Positions 5,247 to 39,392 of a stretch of DNA of 44,740 nt are shown here, one piece after another. Source of the stretch: Escherichia phage McMelon; sequence record OR896838.1, one strand, 5' to 3'. Position 1 is the stretch's first letter; the number at the start of each line of letters is the position of its first letter. The position numbers and the translations under genes were made by a program. The notes under the pieces were generated by a model. It worked only from the letters and a program-made list of their open reading frames with translations, was not told the DNA's origin and ran no database searches.

Positions 5247-5275
5247 AATATATGCAACCAATACGCGGATTGCAA
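5247..5275 (-). promoter_or_regulatory. sigma70-like promoter (TTGCAA-17-TATATT) for 4453..5217
   Basis: Minus-strand reading: TTGCAA, 17-nt spacer, TATATT, then GGTTGCACACCAACA and RBS; same -10 and downstream 21-mer as the promoter at 39364..39392. Confidence 0.45.
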
Positions 5276-5282
5276 GCGAATT

Positions 5283-5310
5283 TTGCGATTATTTTTATCA
5301 CTGATAATAT
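5283..5310 (+). promoter_or_regulatory. candidate sigma70 promoter for scaffold/capsid genes
   Basis: TTGCGA-16 nt-TAATAT upstream of the scaffold gene. Confidence 0.3.
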
Positions 5311-5365
5311 TAGAGGCGTGAAGTCGAGCGGGTGGCCCGCTCTGCCACAATCCCAGGGGGATAGC

Positions 5366-6067
5366 ATGAAACTTACTAAAGCAGAATATGACGCGTTGCC
5401 GGAAGGTATGAAGGCGCTTTTTGTTGCCGATGGTGACGGGTATAAATCAACGTTCATGACCGCAGAAGAAGTACAGGCGGAGATCAAGGGTCTGAAAGAC
5501 AACAACGCGAAGCTGGTGAGCGAGAAGAAAGCAGAAGCTGAACGTCGCGCCGAAGCCGAGCGCCTTGCGAAAGAGAAAGAGGAAGCCGCCGCGCGCAAAA
5601 ATGGCGACCTCGAAGCGATCGACAAGTCTTGGAAAGATAAGTTTGCGAAACACGAAGCAGACACATCGGGAAAAATCGAAGCCTATCGCAAGCAGATCCA
5701 CGATCTAACCATCGGCAGCGCGGCCAAAGACCTGGCGTCGAAGCTGTTCGGTAAGAATGCGGGCATCATGCAACGCCACGTAATGGACCGCCTGACGCTG
5801 GAAGACGGCGAAGACGGCAGCTTGAAAGTGCGTGTCTTGCAGGATGGCAAACCGTCCGCGCTGACTATGGAAGAGCTTGAAAAAGAGTTCCGTAATAACG
5901 CCGATTTCGCATCCGTCCTGGCTGGCACGCCAGCAGGAGGCGCTCCTAGCAAACCGACGCAGGTTGTCGAAGATGTGAAGTCTAAAATTACGATGGGCCA
6001 TAGCTTCGGTATCACCGATCTCACCAAACAGGCCGGGGATATCATCGCTAAAATGGGCGACGAGTAA
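5366..6067 (+). CDS. scaffolding protein
   Basis: 233 aa, strongly helical E/K/A-rich composition, directly upstream of major capsid gene; internal ATG of track ORF 4988..6067 with RBS GGGGGA. Confidence 0.65.
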   Translation: MKLTKAEYDALPEGMKALFVADGDGYKSTFMTAEEVQAEIKGLKDNNAKLVSEKKAEAERRAEAERLAKEKEEAAARKNGDLEAIDKSWKDKFAKHEADTSGKIEAYRKQIHDLTIGSAAKDLASKLFGKNAGIMQRHVMDRLTLEDGEDGSLKVRVLQDGKPSALTMEELEKEFRNNADFASVLAGTPAGGAPSKPTQVVEDVKSKITMGHSFGITDLTKQAGDIIAKMGDE

Positions 6068-6069
6068 GC

Positions 6070-6098
6070 GGATTGCCCGCGAAAGCGGGCAATTTTGC
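6070..6098 (+). terminator. putative terminator / attenuator
   Basis: ATTGCCCGC-gaaa-GCGGGCAAT hairpin followed by TTTTG. Confidence 0.45.
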
Positions 6099-6164
6099 GA
6101 GCGCGTAAAACTAAGGTAACATTAATGCCACTGGGCGAATGCTCACAACTCAAAGGATTTCGAT

Positions 6165-7259
6165 ATGTCTTTAACAGTGTTCCAGCGTAAACTCGTTACC
6201 GCGGTTACGCAAATGATCCCCGACAACCTGAACGTTTTCAACGCCGCCGCCAATGGCGCTGTTGTTCTCGGTACTGGTGAAGTGCTGAAGGACGTTATTG
6301 AGAAAATGTCCGTAGGCTTGATCGCCAACCTCGTTACCGACCGTAACGCCTACGCCCCCGTCGGCACTCCGGCGACCGCGAAAGTGCTGGCGCGTATGCT
6401 AACCAACTCGGTTAACCTTTCCGCAAAAGTGGGTCCGGTAGCAATCACTAAGGCTATGATGGCTAAGATCGAAACCAACGTTAACAGCGTCGCGGCTGAG
6501 ATTGCGGCACAGGCTACTCAAGCGATTATGCTGCACTACCTGAAAGCTGGTATCGGCGCAAGTAAAGCGGCGATCGAAAGCAACGCAGCGGCAAAATATA
6601 CCCAACCGGCGCGCGTTGACGGCGTTGGCGGTCGTACCTTCCCGACCCTGGCAGACTTCCCGCTGGCGGCTTCTAAGTTCGGCGATCAGGCGTCTTTGAT
6701 TAAGTCTTGGTTTATGGACGGCGTTACCTGGGCAAACTTCATTGCGTACCAGGCACTCCCTTCCGCTGAACAGGTATTCGCAATTGGCGATCTCCAGGTA
6801 ATGGGTGATGGCCTGGGCCGTCGCTTCATTATCTCCGATGCCGCTGCCGATGCTATGGGCGCGGGTAACATGCTGGGCCTGGTCCCTGGCGCGGTTGCAG
6901 TTACCACCAACGGCCTCGATATGCTGGCGCAGGAAAAAGGCGGTAACGAGAACATCGAACGCTGGTGGCAGGGTGAGTTCGACTTCAACGTGGCTGTTAA
7001 AGGCTACCGTCTGAAGGCGTCCGCTCGTACCCCGATCGAAGGTGTGCGCTCGTTCAAACTGGACGACATCACCACTTCCGCTAACTGGGAACTGGACCAG
7101 GGCCAGGTAGACAACGCACCGGCAACCGTGCAGGATGTTGGCGGCGATAGCGATACTAAAGGACGTCGTAAGACCCAGGCCGCACAGGCAGTGCCTACCC
7201 GTCACATCAAGGAAACCGCTGGCGTACTGGTTACGCTGACTGCGACCACCGCGTCTTAA
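6165..7259 (+). CDS. major capsid protein
   Basis: 364 aa ORF after scaffold, RBS AAAGGA, flanked by terminators; assigned by synteny and size. Confidence 0.75.
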   Translation: MSLTVFQRKLVTAVTQMIPDNLNVFNAAANGAVVLGTGEVLKDVIEKMSVGLIANLVTDRNAYAPVGTPATAKVLARMLTNSVNLSAKVGPVAITKAMMAKIETNVNSVAAEIAAQATQAIMLHYLKAGIGASKAAIESNAAAKYTQPARVDGVGGRTFPTLADFPLAASKFGDQASLIKSWFMDGVTWANFIAYQALPSAEQVFAIGDLQVMGDGLGRRFIISDAAADAMGAGNMLGLVPGAVAVTTNGLDMLAQEKGGNENIERWWQGEFDFNVAVKGYRLKASARTPIEGVRSFKLDDITTSANWELDQGQVDNAPATVQDVGGDSDTKGRRKTQAAQAVPTRHIKETAGVLVTLTATTAS

Positions 7260-7276
7260 TCGACGCACATCCCAAA

Positions 7277-7302
7277 GGGGCGGGCTTATGCCCGCCTTTT
7301 TT
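7277..7302 (+). terminator. rho-independent terminator
   Basis: GGGGCGGGC-ttat-GCCCGCC hairpin followed by TTTTTT. Confidence 0.75.
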
Positions 7303-7317
7303 ATAGGAGTGAATACA

Positions 7318-7818
7318 ATGTATGGCGACCCGCAAACCTTTGTCGATTATGCCACTGCGCGAGGCGTTGAAATTACGCTGGGCGATGCAACGCGACACAT
7401 TACCATCGTTAATGACTTCCTTAACGGCATCAACTGGATCGGCGAACAGGCGGACCAGACAGGAATAGACGCATGGCCCCGCATCAATTACCCATCGGAC
7501 GGGAAGCCGGTGCGCGACACGCAAACCGAAGCCGTGGCGGTAGTGCCTGTCGGGCAAATCGTAGACTTTGCATCAATCCCCGTTGCCGTTGAGCAAGCTG
7601 TTTACCGGCTGGCGCTGTTGGTGGCTGACGAGATCGATATTTCTCCTGTCGGCGATGGTAAAGAGACTATTCGCGAAACGGTCGGCCCGATCACGATGGA
7701 ATATGACCCGGCGTCGATTGGTAGCGGGGTGTCGTTCCCGTGGTGGGATGGCTTGTTAGGCCACTGGGTTGATTCAGGCGGCAACGCCGCAGGCAATTTC
7801 GACGTATACAGGGGGTGA
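7318..7818 (+). CDS. putative head-tail connector / head completion protein
   Basis: 166 aa from ATG with AGGAG RBS (the track ORF's first ATG lies in the terminator loop); position between capsid and neck genes. Confidence 0.5.
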   Translation: MYGDPQTFVDYATARGVEITLGDATRHITIVNDFLNGINWIGEQADQTGIDAWPRINYPSDGKPVRDTQTEAVAVVPVGQIVDFASIPVAVEQAVYRLALLVADEIDISPVGDGKETIRETVGPITMEYDPASIGSGVSFPWWDGLLGHWVDSGGNAAGNFDVYRG

Positions 7819-7925
7819 TATGAATCCTGCATTACTCGCAGCTATTATCGCTGCAAATACTAAACAGCCGACGGAACAAGAACCGGAGCCAGAACCAGTA
7901 CCACCAGCACAGGAGAGTGAAGAAG

Positions 7926-8279
7926 ATGGCGGGCTTTAATTACGCGGGGTTAAAGCGGAAAGTCAATCCGCTGATTAAAAAGTTCGGCATGACGGCTACG
8001 GTGACGCGTCCGGGATCGGTTGACCGCGTAGACGGCGACGAAGTGATAATCCCGCCAACGTCGTTCGACGTCATCGGTCTTCGCGAGGAGTACAAGCCTA
8101 GCGAGATCGACGGAACGCGTATCGTTGCCGGTGATGTGAAGTTTTTATGTCGGGCGGTTGAGCAATTGCGGGTGGGAGACCTGGTTAACCTGGACGGCAC
8201 TGACTACCGGGTCGTCAACCCTAACCCGCTGCAACCGGCTGGCACTACCATGCTGTTTCAACTACAGCTAAGGGGCTAA
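7926..8279 (+). CDS. putative head-tail joining protein
   Basis: 117 aa, ATG with AGGAGA RBS; synteny only. Confidence 0.5.
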   Translation: MAGFNYAGLKRKVNPLIKKFGMTATVTRPGSVDRVDGDEVIIPPTSFDVIGLREEYKPSEIDGTRIVAGDVKFLCRAVEQLRVGDLVNLDGTDYRVVNPNPLQPAGTTMLFQLQLRG

Positions 8280-8280
8280 C

Positions 8281-8874
8281 GTGGCTGAAGTCTACTCATT
8301 CGCCGCCACTATTGCTACGTGGGTGGATAAGACGAAGGAGAACAACGACAAGGCGGTGCGGGCGTACGGTATGCAAATACTCGGACGCCTTATTGAGATC
8401 TCCCCGGTGGGCGACCCCCGCCGGTGGAAAATTAACAAGGCTTACGCGCTTGCACGCGAACACGCGAACAAGGTGAACGCCGCACAGCGCCGCAAGAACG
8501 GCGGTAAACTGAAGCGTGGGCAGAAGAAGCACGCCAGTGTGCTTGTATCATTCAAAACTAAAAACGGCAACGTCACGTTCCGCCAGCGTGGCTGGGCTGC
8601 GAAGAATTACACCGGCGGACGCTTCCGGGGAAACTGGCAGGTTACGTTCGACCGCCCGGCTGTCGGCGCTATTGACCGCGTGGACAAGGCAGGAACGGCA
8701 ACATTAGCCGCAGGGCGTGAAGTGCTGGCGCATTACGATTCAGGTGAATACGGGTCTATCTGGTTTACTAACAATGTGCCGTATGCCCAGCGACTGGAAT
8801 ATGGCTGGAGTAAACAAGCGCCTGCGGGGATTGTTCGCGTCGTAGCGGCAGAAATTAATTCGAAGGTGAAATAA
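8281..8874 (+). CDS. putative neck / tail completion protein (HK97 gp10-like)
   Basis: 197 aa, GTG start; C-terminal YAQRLEYG resembles the conserved motif of HK97 gp10-family proteins. Confidence 0.5.
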   Translation: MAEVYSFAATIATWVDKTKENNDKAVRAYGMQILGRLIEISPVGDPRRWKINKAYALAREHANKVNAAQRRKNGGKLKRGQKKHASVLVSFKTKNGNVTFRQRGWAAKNYTGGRFRGNWQVTFDRPAVGAIDRVDKAGTATLAAGREVLAHYDSGEYGSIWFTNNVPYAQRLEYGWSKQAPAGIVRVVAAEINSKVK

Positions 8875-9296
8875 TGAGCAATACTCTAATCCGCAAGGCG
8901 CTTAACAGCGTAGTAGAAGAATTATCGGTTAGCCTGAGCACTAGCACGCGCCCGATAAAGGTTAACTGGGAGAACGTGAGTGGCGACCACGCAAACGGCA
9001 GCGGTGTCTACCTGGAACCATATCTGCTTCCGGCCCCTACCCAGTTTGTGGGCTTCCAGCAGAAGGGCCGGATCTATGCAGGCGTGTATCAGATTGCCGT
9101 GGTATTTCCTGCGGGCACGGGCACACAGTATGCGAGCGAACTGGCGGACACCATCGCGACGTCTGACAAGTGGCAGGCCGTAAGGCTTACCGGTGCTGCA
9201 TTCCAGCTTCAAGACGCGCCATACACCAGTTCGGTGATTGAGGATGTTGATCGCGCCCGCATCGTGGTTACAGTGCCCTATTCCTGTTGCGCCTGA
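8874..9296 (+). CDS. putative tail terminator protein
   Basis: 140 aa, ATG overlaps upstream stop (TAATG); immediately upstream of major tail protein. Confidence 0.45.
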   Translation: MSNTLIRKALNSVVEELSVSLSTSTRPIKVNWENVSGDHANGSGVYLEPYLLPAPTQFVGFQQKGRIYAGVYQIAVVFPAGTGTQYASELADTIATSDKWQAVRLTGAAFQLQDAPYTSSVIEDVDRARIVVTVPYSCCA

Positions 9297-9356
9297 TTTG
9301 GCGCAATTCTGCGCGTGCTGTATCATTAAACCGTATATCTAAACAGGAGCTTTATT

Positions 9357-10082
9357 ATGGGTTATCAACTTCCCAACGGGTCCAGCGTCCAGATCGGGTC
9401 CGTATTAGGCAGCGGCATCGCGGTTACGGCAGCTACCAACGCCGCCGCGTCGATCTCCGACCTTACGCAAGGTTGCGTAATTACCTGCGCGGCTTCGCAT
9501 GGTCTGGTTGTTGGCGACGTTGTTATGTTCACTAAAACCCCGTGGGCCCGAGCGCTTAAACGCGCGTTCATCGTGGGTAAAGTGGATACTAACGACGTGA
9601 CGCTGGCGCGCTTCGATACTCAAGACGTCACAAAATACCCTACCGGCGCTTTCGGCGTAGGCACGCCGGGCGAAGTGGTGAAGGTGTCGAGCTTTATCGA
9701 CTTCCCGTTTATCACTAACGTTGCCGTGTCTGGTGGCGACCAGCAGACCACCACCTTCCAGCCGTTGCAGGTGAATACCGCGATCAGTCTGAACACCACG
9801 AAAAACCCGGTGGTACAGACTTACACCTTCACCCACGACGAAGAAGACCCGATCCGCCCAATCCTGGAAGACCTGGACGACACACAGAAAACCACTGTGA
9901 TTAAGTTCACTAACCCAGCGGCAGCAAGCGGCAAAGGTGAGATTCGTATTTACCCAGCTAAGGTATCTTTCCAGAAGATTCCGTCCGCTGAAGTAAACAA
10001 CGTGGAAACGGTACAATCCACTCTGACCATGCAGTCTGATATGGTTATCTACCGTAAGGATCTGGTCGAGGCATTGTCTTGA
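9357..10082 (+). CDS. major tail protein
   Basis: 241 aa, RBS AGGAG, followed by strong terminator and the G/GT chaperone pair. Confidence 0.7.
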   Translation: MGYQLPNGSSVQIGSVLGSGIAVTAATNAAASISDLTQGCVITCAASHGLVVGDVVMFTKTPWARALKRAFIVGKVDTNDVTLARFDTQDVTKYPTGAFGVGTPGEVVKVSSFIDFPFITNVAVSGGDQQTTTFQPLQVNTAISLNTTKNPVVQTYTFTHDEEDPIRPILEDLDDTQKTTVIKFTNPAAASGKGEIRIYPAKVSFQKIPSAEVNNVETVQSTLTMQSDMVIYRKDLVEALS

Positions 10083-10111
10083 TTTGGTCGCTTAAATAGC
10101 GAGTGATAATA

Positions 10112-10136
10112 TGGGGCCAGCACGGCCCCTTTTTTA
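10112..10136 (+). terminator. rho-independent terminator
   Basis: GGGGCC-agca-CGGCCCC hairpin followed by a T-run. Confidence 0.7.
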
Positions 10137-10151
10137 TTGGAGAATACTACA

Positions 10152-10828: not shown

Positions 10829-11140
10829 TGAAGCGGGACGTCCCGCTTTGTCCCGCCCTGTAAAACCGCATATCTAATCACTTTCATTGCATAAACTCAA
10901 AGCGGGACAGGCGGGACGTCCCGTTTTGTCCCACCCATGAAATGTGCATACCTATTCGAATTTCGTGCATAAAACAAGCGGGACAGAAAGCGGGACAGAC
11001 AAGGGGCGGGACAAAGCGGGACAGCACCCCGTCCCCGCCAGTGCTGCCGCGGTTTTCAGCCGATCGGGACAAGCGGGACAAAGCCCAGTCTTTCAGACTA
11101 GACGGGGGTCAACGGCCCCCCTCGTCTGAGACTGAATAAG
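10829..11140. repeat. GCGGGACA iteron / palindrome array ending in GC-rich hairpin (copy A)
   Basis: At least 10 copies of GCGGGAC or its complement, including perfect palindrome GCGGGACGTCCCGC (10833..10846); terminal hairpin GACGGGGGTCAACGGCCCCCCTCGTC; about 150 bp nearly identical to 39030..39210. Confidence 0.7.
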
Positions 11141-11157
11141 GTTTGTTTGAAATTCGC

Positions 11158-11166
11158 TGATACAAT
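11158..11166 (+). promoter_or_regulatory. candidate extended -10 promoter (TGaTACAAT) upstream of tape measure gene
   Basis: TGnTACAAT-type element about 37 nt upstream of the TMP start; no good -35. Confidence 0.3.
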
Positions 11167-11202
11167 GACAGTCGGCAACTGCATAAAAAAGGGGACTGCA
11201 TA

Positions 11203-13845: not shown

Positions 13846-13880
13846 TAAAATGGCCCTCACTACAACGTGGGGGCTTTTTT

Positions 13881-15267: not shown

Positions 15268-16008
15268 ATGCTAACGAAAAAGGTAAAACGCGATATCGCC
15301 GCACATGTCGCGGCATGTCTGCCGGAAGAAGCCTGCGGGCTGGTCGTCATGGTGGGCCGTAAGCAAGTATTCGTCCCGTGCCTGAACGTCTTCGAAGACC
15401 CGACCGGCGTGCGCTCGCGCAAAGACGCGTTTACAATTAGCGATATGGCCTGGATGGATGCCGAGGATATGGGCGACGTCGTGCGCGTAGTCCACTCGCA
15501 CCCCGGTCAGCGCGATCTAGCCCCGTCATTGGGCGACGTTAACGGATGCAACGGCAGCGGCGTCGTCTGGACCATCACTAACGAATATGGCGACTTTATC
15601 GAGATCGACCCGGAAGACCCGCCGCTGGTAGGTCGCCGATTTGTTCTCGGAATTACGGATTGTTACGGCCTCGTTATGGACTGGCACAAAAAGCAGGGCG
15701 TAAACCTGCCAGACTTCCGTGTACCATACAACTGGTGGGAGACAGGCGAAAACCTGTATATGGACAATTGGTATGGCGCGGGCTTCCGGGAGTGTGAGGA
15801 GAATACGCCAGGGGCTATGGTCATCATGCAGATTAGCGCGCCCGTGCCTAACCATGCCGGAATCTACCTTCCGGGCAACCAATTACTACACCATATCTAC
15901 GGTAGCCTGTCGAGCGTGATCCCCTTCCGGGCGGGATTTTTCCGCGACAATGTGGTTAAATGGGTACGTCATAAAGACCTACCGGGGAATATCACAGAAT
16001 GGCAATGA
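15268..16008 (+). CDS. tail assembly protein K-like (MPN/JAMM + NlpC/P60 domains)
   Basis: HSHPG...SLGD JAMM-like motif and downstream Cys-containing DCYGLV as in lambda gpK. Confidence 0.75.
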   Translation: MLTKKVKRDIAAHVAACLPEEACGLVVMVGRKQVFVPCLNVFEDPTGVRSRKDAFTISDMAWMDAEDMGDVVRVVHSHPGQRDLAPSLGDVNGCNGSGVVWTITNEYGDFIEIDPEDPPLVGRRFVLGITDCYGLVMDWHKKQGVNLPDFRVPYNWWETGENLYMDNWYGAGFRECEENTPGAMVIMQISAPVPNHAGIYLPGNQLLHHIYGSLSSVIPFRAGFFRDNVVKWVRHKDLPGNITEWQ

Positions 16009-21046: not shown

Positions 21047-21072
21047 ATAAGCCCCTTTCGGGGCTTATTTGC
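21047..21072. terminator. putative bidirectional terminator
   Basis: AAGCCCC-tttc-GGGGCTT hairpin between convergent genes; T-rich flank. Confidence 0.55.
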
Positions 21073-21283
21073 AGGTTGTGCTTTTGAAGTGGTCAACTGA
21101 CACATACTGGAAGTTAAACGGGTAGCCAGCCCTAAGCATTTTGTGACCGCTAAAATCTGCTACCCCAAACACGGGGACTGAGTAGTCCAAGCCGCTATTC
21201 TGGTATGTCGCGTCGCAGACTTTAGCTGGCATGTTGGCACAACCGGACAAAAGAACCGCACAAATCATAATTAAAGTTTTCAT
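21065..21283 (-). CDS. small outer-membrane lipoprotein (candidate Cor/Llp-like superinfection exclusion protein)
   Basis: 72 aa from ATG with AGGAGA RBS; signal peptide MKTLIMICAVLLSGC with lipobox; antisense to and embedded among tail fibre genes. Confidence 0.6.
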   Translation of the reverse strand: MKTLIMICAVLLSGCANMPAKVCDATYQNSGLDYSVPVFGVADFSGHKMLRAGYPFNFQYVSVDHFKSTTCK

Positions 21284-21363
21284 GGTATCATCTCCTATAT
21301 TTGGTTGAGTTTTAGTATTACACCTCTCGACCAGGATTGCAACCAATTTATGAGGATTCAGCT

Positions 21364-24402: not shown

Positions 24403-24423
24403 GGGGAGGCAGTATTGCCTCCC
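24403..24423 (-). promoter_or_regulatory. conserved intergenic stem-loop element (copy 2)
   Basis: GGGAGGCAGTATTGCCTCCC with flanking CGATGTGGTT; near-identical copy at 24729..24748; lies immediately upstream of RBS of 23832..24386. Confidence 0.45.
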
Positions 24424-24437
24424 GATGTGGTTGTGTG

Positions 24438-24707
24438 TTATTTCTTGGCCCACTCCAGAGTTTTACACTCGTAGTCTTCTTCGGCCTGGCTGAGCACACA
24501 CGTCATCATGTGCTCCGCATTGTCAAATCCGCTGGATTTAGCGTATTTATCTGCTCCTCCAACCTCTGCAATCTCGGCGTTTAGCGCCTCTACAGAATGC
24601 AGTTCGATATTATTAAGATAAGGGCTTGAAACGCCTTCTTTGTCTTCAATCATTGACCAGAATGCGTTGATTTTGTTGTCCAGGTCCGCACTAATGAATT
24701 GTTTCAT
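24438..24707 (-). CDS. hypothetical protein
   Basis: 89 aa from internal ATG with RBS AGGTGA; acidic. Confidence 0.45.
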   Translation of the reverse strand: MKQFISADLDNKINAFWSMIEDKEGVSSPYLNNIELHSVEALNAEIAEVGGADKYAKSSGFDNAEHMMTCVLSQAEEDYECKTLEWAKK

Positions 24708-24728
24708 AATATTCACCTTTTTGTTGCG

Positions 24729-24748
24729 GGAGGCGGTATTGCCTCCCG
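24729..24748 (-). promoter_or_regulatory. conserved intergenic stem-loop element (copy 1)
   Basis: GGGAGGCGGTATTGCCTCCC; directly downstream of the predicted start site of the 24757..24785 promoter. Confidence 0.45.
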
Positions 24749-24756
24749 ATGTGGTT

Positions 24757-24785
24757 AATATAGTTGGTTGCATTATTGGTTGCAA
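24757..24785 (-). promoter_or_regulatory. sigma70-like promoter (TTGCAA-17-TATATT)
   Basis: Minus-strand TTGCAA, 17-nt spacer containing AATGCAACCAA, then TATATT; same family as 5247, 26426 and 39364. Confidence 0.45.
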
Positions 24786-25243
24786 GTGAATTTTGCAAGA
24801 TTCACAGAATAAATATGCGGGACCAGTTCTTCACACGCCCGTTTGATGGCGGCGATGTTCTTCGCGCAGTCGTCAATGATGACCAGTTCGTTAACTTCTG
24901 CATAGCACACCAGGCCAAATACGGAACGGGCCTTGTACTCTGGAGGCGGCGTGTCATCAAGCATATGGCGTAAGAACAGACGACCTTTCGGGAATCTATC
25001 CAATTGCTCTTTCGTTGACTCCCAGCAATCTGACTGGCGGTTTGACAGGTACGCAATGTCGAAGCCCTGTTTAGCGTACATGCGCAATAACGGCAGCATG
25101 TCATAATTAATGTCTTCGCGGACGTGGGCCTTATGCCACTTCGCCCAAAACGTTGATTTAGTCTTGATCCCCGGAACTAGGTCGTCGCGCACACTGCTTG
25201 ACCCGTTGATAACGCCATCTAAATCGCAAATCAGTAGTTTCAT
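24773..25243 (-). CDS. HAD-superfamily phosphatase (nucleotidase / PNK 3'-phosphatase-like)
   Basis: 156 aa; N-terminal ICDLDGV matches HAD motif I (DxDG[TV]); later IIDD acidic motif. Confidence 0.6.
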   Translation of the reverse strand: MKLLICDLDGVINGSSSVRDDLVPGIKTKSTFWAKWHKAHVREDINYDMLPLLRMYAKQGFDIAYLSNRQSDCWESTKEQLDRFPKGRLFLRHMLDDTPPPEYKARSVFGLVCYAEVNELVIIDDCAKNIAAIKRACEELVPHIYSVNLAKFTCNQ

Positions 25244-26378: not shown

Positions 26379-26402
26379 CGTGTTGTCTCCAAGTATTAAA
26401 AA

Positions 26403-26423
26403 GGGTGTCCAAACCGGACACCC
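26403..26423 (-). terminator. hairpin with downstream U-run (terminator/attenuator overlapping promoter start site)
   Basis: GGGTGTCC-ggtttg-GACACCC followed on the minus strand by TTTTAATA; sits at the predicted +1 of the 26426..26454 promoter. Confidence 0.4.
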
Positions 26424-26425
26424 TC

Positions 26426-26454
26426 AATATAATGCAACCAATATGATTATGCAA
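26426..26454 (-). promoter_or_regulatory. sigma70-like promoter (TTGCAT-17-TATATT)
   Basis: Minus-strand TTGCAT, 17-nt spacer containing ATTGGTTGCAT, TATATT. Confidence 0.45.
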
Positions 26455-26459
26455 CCAAT

Positions 26460-29350: not shown

Positions 29351-29390
29351 TTCTAAAATCCTCGACAGGGCTAACCGGCACACTATACCG

Positions 29391-29669
29391 CTACGCGACC
29401 AATTCAGCAACCAATAAATCGCAATCGGCTATGTTGTCAATAACGCGAACGTCAGCCCCGCGGCGGGCCATTCGCTCATGTTCTCGCACCTGGTGCGGCT
29501 TCGGTTTTCCACCGGGGCGCTTCACTTCGACGAATACTACGATGCCGTTGATGATAATAATCAGGTCGGGCGCACCTGCGCGCCCCTCCCATGCCAGTTT
29601 GCGGCAGAATCCGCCAACCTCTTTCACCCGTCGCATCAGGTGACTTTGTATCTTGCCTTCTGGAGTCAT
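29391..29669 (-). CDS. VRR-NUC domain nuclease
   Basis: 92 aa; PD-(D/E)XK-like core GAPDLIIII...VEVK typical of VRR-NUC. Confidence 0.65.
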   Translation of the reverse strand: MTPEGKIQSHLMRRVKEVGGFCRKLAWEGRAGAPDLIIIINGIVVFVEVKRPGGKPKPHQVREHERMARRGADVRVIDNIADCDLLVAELVA

Positions 29670-29857: not shown

Positions 29858-29861
29858 AATC

Positions 29862-32320: not shown

Positions 32321-32329
32321 TTTTCATTG

Positions 32330-32362
32330 TCCTATTAAAAAGCCCGCATTAAGCGGGCTTGA
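32330..32362 (-). terminator. putative terminator after SSB-like gene
   Basis: AAGCCCGC-ttaat-GCGGGCTT hairpin followed on the minus strand by TTTAATAGG. Confidence 0.5.
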
Positions 32363-32378
32363 ATAGTGGGCTTTGCCC

Positions 32379-33158: not shown

Positions 33159-33248
33159 TTTCCAATTCCTCATTTTCACATGTATCGGGGTTATTGGAGG
33201 CCACCCCGTTCGGCTTGGTTGCCAATTTACTTGGTTGCGCTTAAGCGG

Positions 33249-33491
33249 TCAAGCATTTTCATTAAAAAGATTTCTGGTCACGTAGTTGGTAGCGTTCTCG
33301 ATCCAGCTTAACGGCGGGCGGTCGATGTTCTTCTCCACCCAATCGACGGCAACTTCGCTATAGCCGTCATCCAGCCAGCGGGTCGGATGGCGAATCATCC
33401 ACGCCACCATTAACACGCCTTGCACGCAATGCAGGATAAAGCCCAGCGCTCCGAGCAAAAACATCAATAAGATTGCGAATACTTTATTCAT
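33249..33491 (-). CDS. small membrane protein
   Basis: 80 aa with two hydrophobic helices (ILLMFLLGALGFIL; LMVAWMI). Confidence 0.4.
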   Translation of the reverse strand: MNKVFAILLMFLLGALGFILHCVQGVLMVAWMIRHPTRWLDDGYSEVAVDWVEKNIDRPPLSWIENATNYVTRNLFNENA

Positions 33492-34881
33492 TGCTTAAGT
33501 CCTCGTCAGTAGCTTCCGACCACGCAGGGCGCGGGTCGTCGATTGGTGCTAACACCGGTTTGGCAGGTGCGCGCGTGATTTTATCACACAGCTTCGCCCA
33601 CACTTTCGGTTTTTCGTCCTTCAGTACCTTCTCGGCATCCGTAGGGCTGAGCAATGTTTCTTTGTACATCACATCGCGCTTGATCCGGGCCTTCGTGAAG
33701 ATTTCAATCACTTCGCTTTCGTCTGCCCACTTGCGAATCCCTTTCTTACCGGCAACCATCTTGAGGCCCAGCGATTCGCCATCGCCCGCCATAACCGCTT
33801 TGAATACCGCGGACTCGATAGCCTTGATGTGCTGGCGCATTGCGTCCAGACCCTCATATGCCTTGCGCAGTTCCGCCGCGCTCATAGCGCCTGGTGCCGC
33901 TTTTCTGGCTTCGCGGGCCATATTGCGGTCGTGATTGGCGCATTCTTCCTCTGTCGCAATACTCACGTCGTCTCCCAGGTCTTCGTCTGTTGCCGTTGGT
34001 GGGGTCATCGTGTCGATTGCGGCCTTAGCGCGGGCGCTACACTGATCCGCAAATCTGCACCACTGACACGCATCAACGCTCGGTCGGAAGTCGGCACGGG
34101 TGAGTCCCTTCTTGCCGCGGGCGTACGCTTCCAGGGCGGCGATAGCACGCTTGGACGCAAACTTCGCGAATATCTCCAGCGCTTCCACTGTAATATCCCA
34201 CTCCGACGCCCCGCCGCAATACGGCTGGAAGATAACCAGGCGCACGGTCGTGATGTCGTACATGGATTGCAGCTTGCGCAGCAGGCCGAGCGCGTACAAC
34301 ATAAGCTGTTTGTTTTCTTTCGCCTCGACCTTATGCCGCCCGGTCTTCAGGTCGCCAACAATCAGCATGTACGTGCCGTCGGTCTTTTTCATGACCATGA
34401 CCATATCGGCAGTACCGAACGTTTTAATCCGGTTGCCGTCGATCTCGAAGCCAGAGTGTAGGACGCGGGTGAGATCGGCGCGCATCTCAAGCTGAACAAA
34501 CTCCGCCACTTCGAGGAGCGGTCGCCAGTGGTCTATGTACGCGTCGCACTGTTTCACCATGTCGTCGTTGACCAGTACGCCGCCTTTCGGTGCTTTCGGG
34601 TGCGCCTTTACCGGCCCCTTACCTTCGTTCTCGACGTAGCACCCTTTGTACGTTTTCGCGGTTATAAGCTTCTCACCGGCGATAATGCGGTTGAGCACGA
34701 CTTCCGATACTGTGTGCATACTCGTACCGTTAATAGCCGCTTGCCCGGATTCGTTCGGGATACCCTGTTCTACCACCAGGGCCGCGGGACACCCCATCCA
34801 TTTTTTAGCACCGGATGGCCCGAGTAATGAATGTTCCGTATTACTACCAGATTGTGTTTTGCGCTTCGGTTTAATCGCCAT
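33484..34881 (-). CDS. PD-(D/E)XK nuclease, DUF2800-like (Cas4-like exonuclease)
   Basis: 465 aa; nuclease core GDLKTG; C-terminal Cys cluster CQWCRFADQC; classic partner of DUF2815 SSB and Pol A. Confidence 0.7.
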   Translation of the reverse strand: MAIKPKRKTQSGSNTEHSLLGPSGAKKWMGCPAALVVEQGIPNESGQAAINGTSMHTVSEVVLNRIIAGEKLITAKTYKGCYVENEGKGPVKAHPKAPKGGVLVNDDMVKQCDAYIDHWRPLLEVAEFVQLEMRADLTRVLHSGFEIDGNRIKTFGTADMVMVMKKTDGTYMLIVGDLKTGRHKVEAKENKQLMLYALGLLRKLQSMYDITTVRLVIFQPYCGGASEWDITVEALEIFAKFASKRAIAALEAYARGKKGLTRADFRPSVDACQWCRFADQCSARAKAAIDTMTPPTATDEDLGDDVSIATEEECANHDRNMAREARKAAPGAMSAAELRKAYEGLDAMRQHIKAIESAVFKAVMAGDGESLGLKMVAGKKGIRKWADESEVIEIFTKARIKRDVMYKETLLSPTDAEKVLKDEKPKVWAKLCDKITRAPAKPVLAPIDDPRPAWSEATDEDLSNE

Positions 34882-35069
34882 TATTCCACCCTTGAAAATT
34901 GAGCAATGTAATAATCGTGTTCAACATTGGCCCGCTTCGCGGCATTGTTCATGGTAGCCGCCAGTCCTCGAGCTTGCATCCAGCAGCAATTCCAGTTTTG
35001 ATTCATAACGATTTCTGGTTGCTCGTCGCCGGTAATACGGCAACGAAATAAAACAAAGAATATAGCCAT
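34881..35069 (-). CDS. small hypothetical protein
   Basis: 62 aa; start abuts upstream stop (TAAATG) and its stop overlaps the downstream start (TAATG). Confidence 0.35.
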   Translation of the reverse strand: MAIFFVLFRCRITGDEQPEIVMNQNWNCCWMQARGLAATMNNAAKRANVEHDYYIAQFSRVE

Positions 35070-35321
35070 TTATTTTGTCTCCCAGCGGTCAATTGTTTTT
35101 GCTTCGGATGCAACTGCGAAGCGAACATATTCAAGATTGGAATCAGCCCAAATATAAAAGTCTGGATTAATAAAGGTGGTGCGCTTAATTTGCGCGGGAG
35201 TATTGCGGCGTTTATCTATTACGGCAACGCGTGACTGAAAGTTGCCGATGCGTTCGAATAGCCAATAATAAGGGCGTTGGTCGCGTGAATCCACCGCCTC
35301 GATTAGCGTGAAGCGTGCCAT
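35070..35321 (-). CDS. hypothetical protein
   Basis: 83 aa, RBS GAGGA. Confidence 0.45.
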   Translation of the reverse strand: MARFTLIEAVDSRDQRPYYWLFERIGNFQSRVAVIDKRRNTPAQIKRTTFINPDFYIWADSNLEYVRFAVASEAKTIDRWETK

Positions 35322-35330
35322 TGTCTCGTC

Positions 35331-35361
35331 CTCTAAAAAGAGGCCCGCAGATCAGCGGGCC
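35331..35361 (-). terminator. rho-independent terminator
   Basis: GGCCCGC-agatca-GCGGGCC hairpin followed on the minus strand by CTTTTTAGAG. Confidence 0.6.
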
Positions 35362-35369
35362 GGAATATA

Positions 35370-35879
35370 TTAATCTTCCAGTTCGAAATAGGTTTCGACG
35401 ATTTCTTTTAAATCTTTGTGGAAGTCTTCGACGTCGTCGTCTTCCAGCTTGGCGATTGATTTGATCTCGAACGCTTCCAGCAGGTCGTCAAATTCGTCGT
35501 TAGCATCGTCGTCATCGCCACCGGCGATAATCGCGGCGTACTGCTTGATCTCGTCGCGCATCTCTGCCAGCGGATCGGCATCTTTCTTCCCTTTGCCTTT
35601 CGCCGGAGCTTTTTTACCCTTCGCCGGTTTTTCGTCTTCGGCTTCTTCATCGTCGTCATCTTCTACGACTTCTTTTTTGGCCTTACCTTTAGCCGGGGAT
35701 TTTTTAGATTTAGCCGGTTTTTCGTCATCGTCGTCATCTTCGACAACTTCTTTTTTGGCCTTAGACGGCTTCTTATCTTCCTGTTTACCAACGGCAGCGC
35801 CAACGGTTTCATAATGCTTTGCAATGGTTTCCAGTGCTACTACGCCGCGAGTGATCAGGTTTACGATTTGCTCAAACAT
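35370..35879 (-). CDS. highly charged repeat protein (alternating poly-Lys and poly-Asp/Glu blocks)
   Basis: 170 aa from ATG with GGAGA RBS; internal tandem repeats KKEVVEDDDDxEKPAKxKKxPAKGK; the track ORF extends to 36059 but that region looks like a 5' leader. Confidence 0.5.
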   Translation of the reverse strand: MFEQIVNLITRGVVALETIAKHYETVGAAVGKQEDKKPSKAKKEVVEDDDDDEKPAKSKKSPAKGKAKKEVVEDDDDEEAEDEKPAKGKKAPAKGKGKKDADPLAEMRDEIKQYAAIIAGGDDDDANDEFDDLLEAFEIKSIAKLEDDDVEDFHKDLKEIVETYFELED

Positions 35880-36075
35880 GGTATATCTCCGATTGGTTAA
35901 GTTTAGGTGTCGGCAGTTAACTTCGTCGGTGGCCTTAACATATTGCCAGGTTACGCGTTCTCCCGTTCGGGTAGTGGACCTGGTTATATACTCACGGTTG
36001 GGAATCCTGACACTTCGATCCGGCCCCTGCGTTGCCCCTCTCCAGTTTGCGTCCTGCATCCTGTCGACGGAGTGA

Positions 36076-36105
36076 ATGATAGATTGGTTGCAGGATGGGT
36101 GTCAA
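36076..36105 (-). promoter_or_regulatory. strong sigma70-like leftward promoter (TTGACA-18-TATCAT)
   Basis: Minus-strand perfect -35 TTGACA, 18-nt spacer containing CTGCAACCAATC, -10 TATCAT; heads the leftward operon. Confidence 0.55.
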
Positions 36106-36114
36106 CAACTAATT

Positions 36115-36150
36115 TCAAAAAAAAAGCGCCGAGGCAAAATGCGACGGCGC
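36115..36150 (-). terminator. terminator-like hairpin between divergent promoters
   Basis: Minus strand AGCGCCG-tcgcattttgcct-CGGCGCT followed by T9. Confidence 0.45.
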
Positions 36151-36221
36151 TAACCAATAAGAGACAATGAGACGAGAATTATTATTACACGCGTGCGCGC
36201 CCGTTTCAATATCCAAAGGAT

Positions 36222-36250
36222 TTGACACCGTGCAGTTTTGGGTGTAGTTT
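36222..36250 (+). promoter_or_regulatory. sigma70-like rightward promoter (TTGACA-17-TAGTTT)
   Basis: Perfect -35 TTGACA at 36222..36227, 17-nt spacer, TAGTTT; 32 nt upstream of the HTH gene. Confidence 0.5.
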
Positions 36251-36281
36251 TGTTGGTCATTAACCAACTGAGGGCAGAGCA

Positions 36282-36611
36282 ATGAATGTAAACGACGCAA
36301 TCGAAATGTTAACGAAGACTGTTTGCAGTGAGACAAGCCGGTCGTGGGCATACACCGATGCCGTGGGGGCTGTGTTATTTGAAATCGAACGACTGCGGCT
36401 TACCGAAAAAGAATTGCGCGCCAGGCTGGAACTACTCAACGGTACAGCAGCAAGCAAGCTGCAAAAACACAATGAAGAAATGGAAGAATACAAAAAGCAG
36501 GTTATCCGTTTGCGCGCCGAGGGTAAATCATGGGCGATGATTGCCGAGTTGACCGGGATTAATCAGAGCACAGTGCGCTCCTGGGTACGCAATAATAAAA
36601 CTTCTAAGTAA
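36282..36611 (+). CDS. HTH DNA-binding protein (putative transcriptional regulator)
   Basis: 109 aa; helical N-terminus; C-terminal helix-turn-helix SWAMIAELTGINQSTVRSWV; first gene of rightward operon. Confidence 0.6.
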   Translation: MNVNDAIEMLTKTVCSETSRSWAYTDAVGAVLFEIERLRLTEKELRARLELLNGTAASKLQKHNEEMEEYKKQVIRLRAEGKSWAMIAELTGINQSTVRSWVRNNKTSK

Positions 36612-36621
36612 GGCCACGGCA

Positions 36622-38886
36622 ATGAGCTTGATTAAATTCGCTGTAACAAAACCCGCTAAAAAAGGCGAAAAAGCCAGGGCGGAAAACTTCCAGATGACGA
36701 CCGATGAGTTTTTCGAATTTATCAAAGATGCGAAAGAAATCTCCTCGGTGCATATCAACAAGACGGAAGATAGAGCCGAGTATGCGCGCCGCAAGCGTAA
36801 GGCCGATGGCATCGTGGCGTATACCAGTGACGGATTGCGTCGTAAGACCAGTGCGGTGGACCGCTCGATCCTGTTCTTTGATATTGACCGCACCGACACC
36901 CGCACCCTGCGCCGCTGCCGTAAGGCGTTCATCGACGCGGGACTGGAACATGTATTTCACACCACAACCGGCGACCGCCACCCGCTGAAAGGTGGCACGC
37001 GTTGCGCTCGTTTCCTGGTGCTCACCGACAAGCCTGTACCGGCGGAAGACCTGGGCCGCGTACAGTATGCACTGTTACACCAACTGGGCCTGTCAGATGT
37101 GGACTTCGATGATTGTACGAAAGACACAAACCGCCTTATGTACCTGCCACACCAGCAGTCCGTTGTTAAGTGTCACTACGGCAAACGTGCCCGCGTCCGT
37201 CGTCTGCTTCGCCTGGCGGATAAGCTGGGAGTGGAAAAAGAGGAAGTACGACGCGAACTGACCCAGGGCGATGACGGCGTTGCGGACGGTATTCTGGATT
37301 GGTGCTTCCAGGCAGGATTCGAACCGCTGTCGTCCGGTCGTGGCTATGAAGTGCCATGCCCGAACGAACATCTGCACAGTGGTGAAGGGTCCACCGCTAT
37401 CATGGTTAAGGATGGCGAGATCCGTTTCAAGTGTATGCACACCGGCAACGAGTGCTGTTCCGAACTGAACAGACACCAGCACCTGGCGCTACGTCTTATC
37501 GGGATCCCGGACCACTTGAACGTCGAACCGCACAACATGTCACGTAAGCAAATCGCCGCCATCCTTCCGGGACTGGACGATGAGGAAGTGGAATCGTGCT
37601 ATGAACATATCGTTGATGCGGTCGGAGACGGCGACGAGTACGGCGGATGTACAGATGCAGACCTGGACAACGAGCCGGTTGCGCTGTTCAGTAAGCACGA
37701 CCCGATCATCGAGGGGCTGATTAACTTCAAATCGACCTGGTATCTTGCTGGCGGGTCGAACATCGGTAAATCGTTCTACGTGCTGGGCCAGATGGCGTCA
37801 GTATCTGCCGGTATTCCGTTCGGCGGCGCGAAGGTCGTCCAGTGCCACAACTTCTATTTCGACGCGGAAGGTGGTGAAGCCTCCAACCAGCGTAAGGAAG
37901 CATTGCAGATCAAATATGAGCACGACCTGGACAAGCTGCACATTATCGATCTGCAGTCACGCGGCTGGGATATCACCAGCAAATCCGGCTTGCGTGAAGT
38001 TATCAGCTTTATCAACCGCACCGCTAACGGCGAGCCGGTTGGCCTGGTGGCGTTCGACTCACTCAACCAGACTGTCGCGTTGCGGTCAGCCGATGCTAAA
38101 CCGTTCGACGAGAACAACGCCAGCGATATGGGCGAAGTGGTCAAAGCGCTGAAGGCTATTGCGGAAAACACAGGCGGCAGTGCGGGAGTCATCCACCACC
38201 CGGCGAAAGGTGCAAACGGCAGCAGATCTCCCCGCGGGTCCGGCGCGCTGCATGGTGCTGTCGATTCCGCGTTCTTCCTGGAGCAACCGGACGACAATCA
38301 GCCGGGCCAATTGAACCTGTACCATGAGAAGGCACGTAACGGCATCAAGCAAGCGCCGCGCGGCTTCGTTCTGCTTAAGTGCAAGGTTAAGGTGGATCTC
38401 CGCAAGTCAGAGGCGTTCGAATCGCACCAGTCCACCAGCACCGGGCCTGATTTCGGTGATGTGGTTGCAGGATGGGACGTCAAGCCGATCGCATCAACGC
38501 CACGCGACGAGACTCTTTACCTCGTACCTGTCGCCCTGGCACCGTTCGCTATTGAGCAGGCGAAGGCCGCGGGTAAGGCAGCAGTTAAGGAAGAGAACCC
38601 CGCAGGACCTCGCAACGAAAAAGAGAAAGTGCTTTATGCGGCGCTGGAAAAACTGATGGAAGATAACCCGGACCATACCGGATTCAGTAAATCGGCAATC
38701 GTCCGCCAGGCTGGACTTGCGAAAGGTGGCACATCGACGAAGGCAATAGACGATATGGTCGAGCGCGGCGTGCTCGGTTTCTATACAGATCCGCACACCG
38801 GGGCCATCTATGGGTCATCGAATATCGTCATCAAAACGAATATACCCATCACGCTTTCGGCGACCGACGATGATTTAAAAGATTAA
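36622..38886 (+). CDS. DNA primase-polymerase (AEP-type) fused to P-loop ATPase/helicase domain
   Basis: 754 aa; N-terminal acidic motif ILFFDIDR (DxD) typical of prim-pol; central Walker A GGSNIGKS. Confidence 0.8.
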   Translation: MSLIKFAVTKPAKKGEKARAENFQMTTDEFFEFIKDAKEISSVHINKTEDRAEYARRKRKADGIVAYTSDGLRRKTSAVDRSILFFDIDRTDTRTLRRCRKAFIDAGLEHVFHTTTGDRHPLKGGTRCARFLVLTDKPVPAEDLGRVQYALLHQLGLSDVDFDDCTKDTNRLMYLPHQQSVVKCHYGKRARVRRLLRLADKLGVEKEEVRRELTQGDDGVADGILDWCFQAGFEPLSSGRGYEVPCPNEHLHSGEGSTAIMVKDGEIRFKCMHTGNECCSELNRHQHLALRLIGIPDHLNVEPHNMSRKQIAAILPGLDDEEVESCYEHIVDAVGDGDEYGGCTDADLDNEPVALFSKHDPIIEGLINFKSTWYLAGGSNIGKSFYVLGQMASVSAGIPFGGAKVVQCHNFYFDAEGGEASNQRKEALQIKYEHDLDKLHIIDLQSRGWDITSKSGLREVISFINRTANGEPVGLVAFDSLNQTVALRSADAKPFDENNASDMGEVVKALKAIAENTGGSAGVIHHPAKGANGSRSPRGSGALHGAVDSAFFLEQPDDNQPGQLNLYHEKARNGIKQAPRGFVLLKCKVKVDLRKSEAFESHQSTSTGPDFGDVVAGWDVKPIASTPRDETLYLVPVALAPFAIEQAKAAGKAAVKEENPAGPRNEKEKVLYAALEKLMEDNPDHTGFSKSAIVRQAGLAKGGTSTKAIDDMVERGVLGFYTDPHTGAIYGSSNIVIKTNIPITLSATDDDLKD

Positions 38887-38961
38887 ATTCTGCGCGCATT
38901 GGTTGCCGATATGGGAATTCCCATATCGTTAGAAGATTAAATTTTGCGCGCATTGGTTGCC
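38876..38961. repeat. direct repeat - 22-bp perfect palindrome - direct repeat structure (candidate origin/operator)
   Basis: 31-bp direct repeats A(A/G)AAGATTAAATT(C/T)TGCGCGCATTGGTTGCC at 38876..38907 and 38930..38961 flanking CGATATGGGAATTCCCATATCG (38907..38928); third ATTGGTTGCC at 38986..38996. Confidence 0.6.
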
Positions 38962-39029
38962 ATTTTGAGTGTTTTTATCTGGTCGTATTGGTTGCCGTGT
39001 AGTGTAAATATAGTGAATAGTTATGCAGT

Positions 39030-39210
39030 TTTATTGCATAAAGCAAGCGGGACAAAAAGCGGGACAAACAAGGGGCGGGACAAAGCGGGACAGCACCCCT
39101 GTCCCGCCCCGGATGACGCGGCTTCCAGAGGAGCGGGACAGGCGGGACAACTCCCAGTCTTTCAGACTAGACGGGGGTCAATGGCCCCCCTCGTCTGAGA
39201 CTGAATAAAA
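39030..39210. repeat. GCGGGACA iteron / palindrome array ending in GC-rich hairpin (copy B)
   Basis: Near-identical to 10970..11140: same order of GCGGGACA units, GGCGGGAC...GTCCCGCC inverted repeat and terminal hairpin (loop differs by one base). Confidence 0.7.
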
Positions 39211-39363
39211 TCCGGGTATTGCAAAATACACGGCAGCATGATGCGAATTGCGGTCGTCGATGAACTAGGCAACCAATGCGGGTTGTATTATGCTGAGTGA
39301 AAAATGCGGTTTGCAGTCACAGCAGATAGCGATCAGCTTTTTCATGCGCGTGATTAATATTGG

Positions 39364-39392
39364 TTGCACCCACCCTGGCACCCTGCTATATT
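39364..39392 (+). promoter_or_regulatory. sigma70-like promoter (TTGCAC-17-TATATT) for rightward early ORFs
   Basis: TTGCAC, 17-nt spacer, TATATT, then GGTTGCACACCAACA and RBS GAGGAC; -10 plus downstream 21-mer identical to the 5247..5275 promoter. Confidence 0.5.

Follow-up and report, generated by a model that had tools for sequence, protein, structure and literature searches.

The subject of this study is a 10-base word, ATTGGTTGCA, that recurs across the genome of Escherichia phage McMelon (record OR896838.1), a stretch of 44,740 bp that was analysed at its whole length and is referred to here as the window. The word is enriched, placed mostly at promoters, used in either orientation and selectively conserved among related phages. 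We hold with moderate confidence that, in the form A-TTGGTTGC-A/C, it would be a cis-acting operator for one sequence-specific protein, laid over the promoters that are not late. The window aligns near its full length, at ~90-94% identity, with the Escherichia phages B2, Pubbukkers and TH13 and with about 150 other Dhillonvirus records, and is a complete Dhillonvirus genome (an HK578/SO-1-like virulent siphovirus) beginning at the large terminase gene.

Eleven exact matches to ATTGGTTGCA occur on the two strands against 0.12 expected, a number reached by none of 100 shuffled sequences, and 19 against 3.2 expected when one mismatch is allowed; the 8-mer core TTGGTTGC is found at 21 sites against 2.05. 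A count matrix of these 21 sites confines the information to 10 positions, with none in the flanks and no dyad symmetry. By our own gene map, 17 of the 21 core sites fall in non-coding DNA, which amounts to 2,729 bases (6.1% of the genome; binomial P about 1e-17); this intergenic enrichment bears out the original prediction, in which the motif had been noticed as recurring, often in pairs, in intergenic clusters. Every one of those clusters is present (Table 1), and the sites at 29406, 39929 and 15874 are to be added to them. Two further core sites (24776 and 29407) lie in the final codons of a promoter-adjacent gene, and the copy at 15874 is probably a chance match. Judged by position only, 17 of the 21 copies overlap or abut a -35, -10 or +1 region. 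Many copies of one short non-palindromic site, mostly intergenic, are what one would look for in a dispersed asymmetric operator.

Twelve sigma70-like promoters bear the word, the sites being read on the transcribed strand. Eleven have a spacer of 17-18 bp and are each followed by a gene with a ribosome-binding site; the doubtful one, at 39261-39291, has a spacer of 19 bp. No more than five match the consensus at 9 or more of its 12 positions, and the genome-wide number of sigma70 consensus matches is not above that of shuffled sequences. They fall into two groups. In the first, a modest -35 (TTGCAN) is supplied or overlapped by the word (5275, 21342, 24785, 26454 and 29410 on the minus strand, 39364 and 39928 on the plus strand). 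In the second, a consensus-type -35 (TTGACA, TTGACC or TTGACT) is accompanied by a reversed copy in the spacer or just past the -10 (36105 and 33252 on the minus strand, 42521 and, more doubtfully, 39261 on the plus strand). The 36105 promoter, the best sigma70 match of the genome (11/12), is the main one in the leftward direction. Three positions of the word recur. The copies at 21338, 24775, 26450, 29406, 39359 and 39929 supply or overlap the -35. Others adjoin the -10 on its upstream side with 0-1 nt between, two of them forward (5253, 26433) and three reversed (24763, 33230, 36083). Yet others cover the start site together with the -10 at its 3' end, two forward (5240, 39390) and two reversed (33214, 42550). 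Promoters mostly carry two copies, whose starts are 12, 13, 16, 17, 23 or 31 nt apart. Since three registers and two orientations are in use, an element read by RNA polymerase itself would be excluded, and a site for a separate, polymerase-blocking protein fits.

The units served by word-bearing promoters are the leftward replication cluster, with five serial promoters, the rightward small-gene block (driven by the 39364 promoter, and including the internal one), the phosphoesterase unit and both opposite-strand genes within the structural region. Two late-promoter candidates are free of the word: the small terminase gene is preceded by an extended -10, TGTTATAAT (44112-44120), and the scaffold gene by a plus-strand promoter (5283-5310).

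The four TTGCA(A/T/C)-17-TATATT promoters of the original prediction were recovered to the base, and the identical 21-nt segment that two of them were said to share, TATATTGGTTGCACACCAACA, is a perfect inverted repeat (5232-5252 versus 39387-39407). The tie between the word and sigma70-type promoters stands. The claim that the motif defines one class of near-identical promoters does not, because the word occurs in several registers and both orientations, and on TTGAC(A/C/T) promoters as well; only two promoter pairs (5275/39364 and 5275/24785) are paralogous. Nor does the motif mark promoters throughout, since three of the four copies that flank the probable origin have no recognisable one. 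A related view, that the word is an intrinsic promoter element without a separate binder, would have sigma70 promoters spread as cassettes by duplication or recombination, with TTGCA as the -35 and ATT completing the -10. The word is indeed the -35 hexamer in six promoters and provides the last three bases of TATATT in two; the 5275 promoter has 21 nt in common with 39364 and a 19-nt upstream element in common with 24785; and the promoters sit at mosaic junctions where gene cassettes are gained and lost, those downstream of 5275 varying among phages and the 42521 cassette (promoter plus a 26-aa open reading frame, ORF) being missing from Pubbukkers and JLBYU60. However, the copies at 36105, 33252 and 42521 are reversed and located in the spacer or past the -10, where sigma70 reads no specific sequence; the ATTGG half of the word precedes the -35 in forward copies and follows it in reversed ones; the 24763 copy is flipped between phages with its position unmoved; the origin-flank copies have no hexamers; and in Salmonella phage GRNsp27 the promoters, judged by their sequence, do without the word. 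We regard this explanation as unlikely, and yet as the weightiest of four rivals, the others being, in falling order, a host factor site, an activator box and an origin element.

The word is selectively conserved among related phages. ATTGGTTGC(A) is the most over-represented 9- or 10-mer in Pubbukkers, JLBYU60, CHD5UKE2 and SO-1, which have 18-21 core sites each. In five-genome alignments of nine intergenic regions, 91.8% of the word columns are invariant versus 78.1% of the other intergenic columns (Fisher P = 2e-5), the figures for -10 hexamers and non-word -35 hexamers being 88% and 92%. Over 20 Dhillonvirus loci (the five genomes and 15 loci from IMG/VR) the word is invariant, the spacers are hypervariable and the -10 drifts (TATATT/TAGATT, TATCAT/TAATAT). 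At 36105 the spacer beside the -35 reads CCCATCC, TCCCTTC, CCTCACA or CCCCGCC, with TGCAACCAATC unchanged throughout. At 39364 the 17-nt spacer is nearly free and the -10 is TATATT or TAGATT, while the -35 copy is constant and the TTGGTTGC core of the +1 copy is intact in every variant except one. At 39268 GGCAACCAATGC is fixed amid divergent DNA, and the TTGCAACCAAT of 39929 is better conserved than the codons around it, one variant differing. A natural flip is found in the 24.76-kb promoter, where the -10-proximal copy is reversed (TGCAACCAAC abutting TATATT) in the window and JLBYU60 and forward (GTTGGTTGCAC abutting TATAGT), at the same place, in Pubbukkers, CHD5UKE2 and SO-1.

GRNsp27 has the replication module in common (DNA polymerase 65% and primase-helicase 44% identical) and has no copy at all, although its promoters at the orthologous positions are good ones, such as TTGACA-17-TATATT ahead of the single-stranded DNA-binding protein gene; the word would therefore be an addition to promoters that, judged by their sequence, work without it. 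The Kagunavirus JSSK01 has no enrichment of the core (4 sites versus 1.8 expected). Klebsiella phage 37P2 (Guernseyvirinae), with a primase-helicase 47% identical to the Dhillonvirus one, has 13 TTGGTTGC sites with the consensus ATGTTGGTTGCAAT; some provide the -35 of TTGCAA-17-TATAGT promoters and others lie in spacers or leaders. Scans of viral contigs gave mostly chance matches or coding tandem repeats, and also 37P2-like contigs. A palindromic 11-mer of 37P2, AAATTTATCGA, was set aside as belonging to a terminal duplication of the record. As a separate observation, the 8-mers ACGGCAGC and ACGGCAAC occur 22-30 times versus ~2.4 expected in most genomes examined (Dhillonvirus, 37P2, Kagunavirus); GRNsp27 does not show this.

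If the word is an operator, one sequence-specific protein would dock on it at the sigma70-type promoters of all units outside the late structural genes, the paired copies together covering the -35, the -10-adjacent spacer or the -10/+1 junction. Because these are elements that RNA polymerase must touch, occupancy would exclude the enzyme, and repression by occlusion is the mechanism that the placement of the word would best support. We infer, then, that a protein binds the word, and its role would most likely be that of a repressor shutting off early and middle transcription: as the binder accumulates, these units would be shut off or throttled together, and the late genes would escape, their promoter candidates being without the word. 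Several points weigh against this reading. The pair spacing is irregular (12-31 nt), which a rigid dimer would not tolerate. Part of the conservation of the word may be promoter function, since it supplies the -35 (TTGCA) in six promoters. The early or late class of each unit was assigned from gene content. The three copies on the left flank of the origin have no recognisable promoter, and it is chiefly these copies that promoter occlusion alone would not explain. Finally, 37P2 has no homologue of the Dhillonvirus protein that would be the candidate binder, and carries a Cro/CI-type helix-turn-helix (HTH) protein at the equivalent position.

The word could also be a box for a phage activator or sigma-appropriation system of the T4 MotA/AsiA kind, which would steer the host polymerase to middle promoters with a weak -35. 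Six promoters have the word at exactly -40 to -31, only TTGCAN as a -35 and a good -10, and, as in the MotA boxes of T4, a phage-specific word of 9-10 bp stands at the -35 together with a host-type -10. In T4 the position and orientation of the MotA box are constant, and its effect, exerted with AsiA, is positive; an activator needs both position and orientation to be fixed, whereas the word is found in at least three registers and in two orientations. Moreover, the copies over the -10/+1 junction would block polymerase, and none of the 20 small window proteins scanned matched the MotA or AsiA families. We consider an activator box improbable.

The operator reading would place the word in a kind of system that is known from phages L5 and P1; we found no published description of the word itself, nor anything on Dhillonvirus promoters or start-site mapping, and a search with the sequence string returned unrelated primers only. 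In mycobacteriophage L5 the binder, gp71, is a small HTH immunity repressor of a temperate phage. There, as here, a short asymmetric site (~20-30 copies in L5) lies nearly always in short intergenic gaps and overlaps a -35-like hexamer, which in L5 is found at the main early promoter and is read by the one small HTH repressor. Its operator and 'stoperator' sites, said to have been described by Brown et al. in 1997, are reportedly 13 bp long and locked in orientation to transcription, many of them acting on elongation between genes. In contrast, our word differs in sequence, belongs to a virulent phage, sits on the promoters themselves with both orientations relative to transcription in use (one site even being flipped between sister phages), and has only a candidate binder. 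The C1 operators of the temperate phage P1 (17 bp, ATTGCTCTAATAAATTT), whose binder is known, are likewise asymmetric, scattered over many separate promoters, single or paired and in either orientation; they differ in being longer and in belonging to a temperate phage, and no C1 homologue was seen in the window. The promoter/stem-loop cassettes (PeSLs) of T4-type phages are similar in being repeated promoter-containing segments at points of cassette exchange, and two promoters here have stable hairpins directly after them; but in PeSLs the whole promoter and stem-loop repeats, and here only the 10-bp word is common to all promoters.

The binder would most likely be a coiled-coil HTH protein of the phage (36282-36611), made from a consensus-like promoter with a related palindrome, TTGGT-N5-ACCAA, at its start site. 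As an identification this is tentative, well short of an even chance. Among 20 small window proteins scanned against Pfam it was the only one with a DNA-binding signature (HTH_23, HTH_28 and Sigma70_r4_2, residues 65-105). Its predicted model (mean predicted local distance difference test score, pLDDT, 85) has one helix over residues 26-79, forming a coiled coil, and a two-helix HTH end at the C-terminus; fold and sequence searches returned only generic three-helix HTH matches (LuxR/GerE, resolvase, IS21, DeoR) at E > 0.4. The sharply bounded 10-bp information content of the word suits a single small HTH domain. Among 16 variants of the protein, residues 47-106 are almost invariant and the first 45 residues are hypervariable or replaced; the frozen HTH half fits a domain that must keep reading ~20 fixed sites. 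The variability of the N-terminal 45 residues suggests, as a separate matter, diversifying pressure on whatever the N-terminus contacts. The palindrome TTGGTCATTAACCAA, intact in 15 of 17 loci, is a candidate autoregulatory operator of the HTH gene, and the form TTGGT-N5-ACCAA occurs three times in the genome versus 0.05 expected, two of the three being in the duplicated 21-mer. The leader palindromes fold only weakly as RNA (-2.4 to -6.4 kcal/mol, within the range of shuffles), and a role at the DNA level is therefore more likely; an RNA-level role was rejected on these folds and for want of an Rfam match, there being none at gathering score anywhere in the window. A plus-strand promoter using 36083 as its -35 (TTGCAG-16-TAATTT) was also dropped, since a consensus-like promoter (36222-36250) stands directly upstream of the HTH gene.

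That a regulator binds the motif, as first proposed, remains the most economical reading of the word; the identity of that regulator is where the proposal is in difficulty, the invariance of the DNA-binding half across alleles speaking for the HTH protein and 37P2, with the word on its promoters and no homologue, against it. No regulator common to the Dhillonviruses and 37P2 was found among their small proteins by tblastn, phmmer, a family hidden Markov model (HMM) or a recognition-helix pattern. A phage Dam methylase, present in the window and 37P2 and absent from GRNsp27, was considered as the common regulator and judged irrelevant, the word being without GATC. It follows that either two unrelated regulators read one core, or a fast-evolving phage protein does, or a host protein does. 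The last of these, a DNA-binding protein of the Enterobacterales that the phage exploits or accommodates, would explain how two phage lineages with unrelated regulators came to have the word in common, the core being found in Dhillonviruses of E. coli, Shigella and Sodalis and in 37P2-like Klebsiella phages. On the other hand, the related E. coli and Salmonella phages JSSK01 and GRNsp27 do not use the word, small phage proteins diverge so fast that failure to detect a common one is weak evidence, and the word matches none of the E. coli regulator consensuses considered. The CytR consensus, GTTGCATT, has only GTTGCA in common with it, and the positions past TTGGTTGCA carry no information here; PdhR/UxuR-type boxes require TGGT-N2-3-ACCA. 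These two, and the NtrC and sigma54 sites, were rejected as none fits the 10-bp information profile. A scan of bacterial genomes for paired copies gave, among the matches listed, scattered unrelated taxa in a chance-like pattern. A host protein as the binder seems somewhat less likely than an intrinsic promoter element.

A candidate small RNA of ~60 nt was observed next to the HTH gene (36118-36209, minus strand), with the promoter TTGAAA-17-AATAAT and an upstream TG (36209-36181) and a terminator hairpin followed by U9 (-16.7 kcal/mol, z = -3.1); across five Dhillonviruses the RNA hardly varies. The 5' part of it, which is single-stranded, shows complementarity to the HTH gene in the leader, the ribosome-binding site and the start codon (the duplex is at -21.7 kcal/mol, shuffles are at -12.8 +/- 2.7), as well as to the leader of the 21292 gene. 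In other HTH alleles AACCAA-N3-GAGAC(A) is retained.

In its most far-reaching form the argument would make the HTH protein a master switch, which with its frozen DNA-binding half would read the ~20 copies, silence all non-late promoters and bracket the origin, coupling shut-off to replication, while being itself checked by the palindromic operator and by the 60-nt small RNA complementary to its ribosome-binding site. As a whole this is doubtful. Were it true, the same core in 37P2, alongside an unrelated regulator, would mean convergent capture or a common host partner.

The fourth rival is that the word is primarily a replication-origin element, read by the primase-helicase or an origin-binding protein, its promoter copies being secondary. 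Downstream of the primase-helicase gene, a gap of 534 nt contains a long hairpin and six or seven GCGGGACA iterons, with three direct ATTGGTTGCC copies to the left of the iterons and one inverted ATTGGTTGCC copy to the right. Six of the 21 copies of the word are in this non-coding region, and inverted CGCATTGGTTGCC copies bracket the iterons. Three unrelated IMG/VR phages (GC 41-65%) have 8-12 TTGGTTGCA copies within 220-420 bp, an iteron-like use, and two of these clusters adjoin a helicase gene, VapE-like or DUF3987; we treat these clusters as coincidental reuse of the word. But the origin has iterons of its own, which change with the primase-helicase in relatives as the word does not: the iteron word is TTGCGAGT in 37P2 and GGGGGAGA in GRNsp27, so that the iterons, rather than the word studied here, track the initiator. 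Whereas GCGGGACA behaves as iterons do, the word is dispersed, and its core is kept in Dhillonviruses and 37P2 despite the divergence of their primase-helicases. Furthermore, the word is missing from the second iteron region (10830-11140), and of the 15 copies elsewhere in the genome 14 are on promoters. We take this to be the least probable of the explanations considered, by a little.

The iteron block itself is duplicated, at 39013-39210 and 10830-11140 (196 nt, 85% identical, the second copy at 10944-11139), each block having six direct and one inverted GCGGGACA and the long hairpin CAGTCTTTCAGACTAGACGGGGG...CCCCCCTCGTCTGAGACTG. The first follows the primase-helicase gene and the second has the tail chaperone gene on one side and the tape-measure gene on the other. 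In the SO-1 record the two are annotated as repeat regions A and B; such a two-site layout recalls P4 ori/crr. Between the first two word copies of the left flank lies a perfect 22-bp palindrome, CGATATGGGAATTCCCATATCG (38908-38929); in SO-1, CHD5UKE2 and several IMG/VR relatives it is part of a deletion of 54 nt.

Dhillonviruses are common phages of E. coli, being represented in the BASEL collection, among therapy candidates and in studies of defence systems, and we found no published account of the timing of their transcription. Should the word be an operator, sequence alone would define the whole early and middle regulon at ~12 promoter coordinates, and 10 bp with one small protein would make a compact handle to switch genes in engineered phages. 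Ready tests of how phage regulons evolve are offered by the orientation flip and by the recurrence of the core in another lineage, whose regulator is different.

The features are collected in Table 1, the gene layout having been derived by comparison with the annotated records of Pubbukkers, JLBYU60 and SO-1.

Table 1. Coordinates of word copies, word-bearing promoters and neighbouring features (window positions unless another phage is named; copies are forward or reversed as read on the transcribed strand)
Feature	Position	Strand	Remarks
Word clusters already listed in the original prediction	5240/5253, 21338, 24763/24775, 26433/26450, 33214/33230, 36083, 38898/38952/38987, 39268, 39359/39390, 42527/42550		All present
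Nmad5-domain protein gene	4453-5217	-	Embedded in structural block; from domain scan
Two forward ATTGGTTGCA copies	5253-5262 and 5240-5249	-	13 nt start to start; first fills spacer up to -10, second overlaps 3' end of -10 and +1 region
Promoter TTGCAA-17-TATATT	5247-5275	-	Serves Nmad5-domain gene 4453-5217 within structural block
ATTGGTTGCC copy	15874-15883	-	Inside tail gene; without promoter context
Superinfection-exclusion/lipoprotein gene	21065-21292	-	Embedded in structural block; annotated as superinfection exclusion in relatives
Promoter TTGCAA-17-AATACT, TG two bases upstream of -10	21314-21347	-	One forward copy, 21338-21347, is the -35; serves 21065-21292
Promoter TTGCAA-17-TATATT	24757-24785	-	Two reversed copies: 24775-24784 over -35, 24763-24772 against -10
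Promoter TTGCAT-17-TATATT	26426-26459	-	Forward copies: 26450-26459 gives -35, 26433-26442 ends 1 nt before -10; terminator hairpin directly after
Promoter TTGCTG-17-TATAGT	29382-29415	-	ATTGGTTGCT (29406-29415) supplies -35; degenerate copy ATTGGTCGCG 12 nt downstream
Promoter TTGACC-17-TAAATT	33214-33252	-	Upstream of single-stranded DNA-binding protein gene; reversed CGCAACCAAG against -10, reversed GGCAACCAAG directly after -10
Promoter TTGACA-18-TATCAT	36076-36105	-	Reversed copy 36083-36092 in spacer, 1 nt off -10
HTH gene promoter TTGACA-17-TAGTTT	36222-36250	+	Upstream of HTH gene
Palindrome TTGGTCATTAACCAA	36253-36267		About +2 to +16 of HTH promoter
HTH protein, 109 aa	36282-36611	+	Pfam signature and structure model
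Three direct ATTGGTTGCC copies	38898, 38952, 38987 (38898-38996)	+	Left flank of probable origin
Reversed GGCAACCAAT (39268-39277) with weak promoter candidate TGAACT-19-TATTAT	39261-39291	+	Right flank of origin; geometry as in 42521 promoter
Promoter TTGCAC-17-TATATT (39364-39392)	39359-39399	+	Forward copies: 39359-39368 at -35, 39390-39399 over -10/+1
Internal promoter TTGCAA-17-TACATT	39928-39956	+	Reversed copy 39929-39938 supplies -35; inside gene 39742-40011
Promoter TTGACT-18-CATACT	42521-42559	+	Just past terminator; reversed copies 42527-42536 (spacer) and 42550-42559 (-10/+1)
Structural genes	~44.2 kb round to 23.2 kb	+	By comparison with annotated relatives
Replication and nucleotide-metabolism cluster, 13 kb	36059 down to 23214	-	
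Plus-strand block		+	In order: small HTH protein, primase-helicase, 534-nt non-coding region, small genes, lysis genes, phosphoesterase unit
TTGGTTGCA clusters in unrelated phages	L268 2754-3174; L344 6313-6626; L328 9039-9259		

Some further observations concern the neighbourhood of individual promoters. An element TYGCAAAATTCRCTTGCAA (minus-strand reading) is found at 5268-5290 and 24779-24803, upstream of and through the -35 of the promoters 5275 and 24785; since it is also common to these two, the 5275 promoter looks chimeric, with an upstream half of the 24785 type and a downstream half of the 39364 type. Strong hairpins directly follow two word-bearing promoters on the minus strand (26395-26425 and 24727-24750; -17.7 and -17.2 kcal/mol, z = -3.2 and -4.1). 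The 26.4-kb hairpin is followed by a U5 tail and would have the predicted start site within its 5' arm, so that read-through would terminate and transcripts begun at that promoter would escape. Near the other, an extra 89-aa gene (24706-24440, minus strand), missing from Pubbukkers and others, has direct repeats of the hairpin AACCACATCGGGAGGCAATACYGCCTCCC on both sides (24405-24756), and the region looks like a cassette inserted by hairpin-hairpin recombination. Directly after the 42521 promoter, the unlisted 26-aa ORF MARKDIWVLAIWTTAAFIGMVICELI (window 42580-42660) encodes a hydrophobic peptide and has a strong ribosome-binding site.

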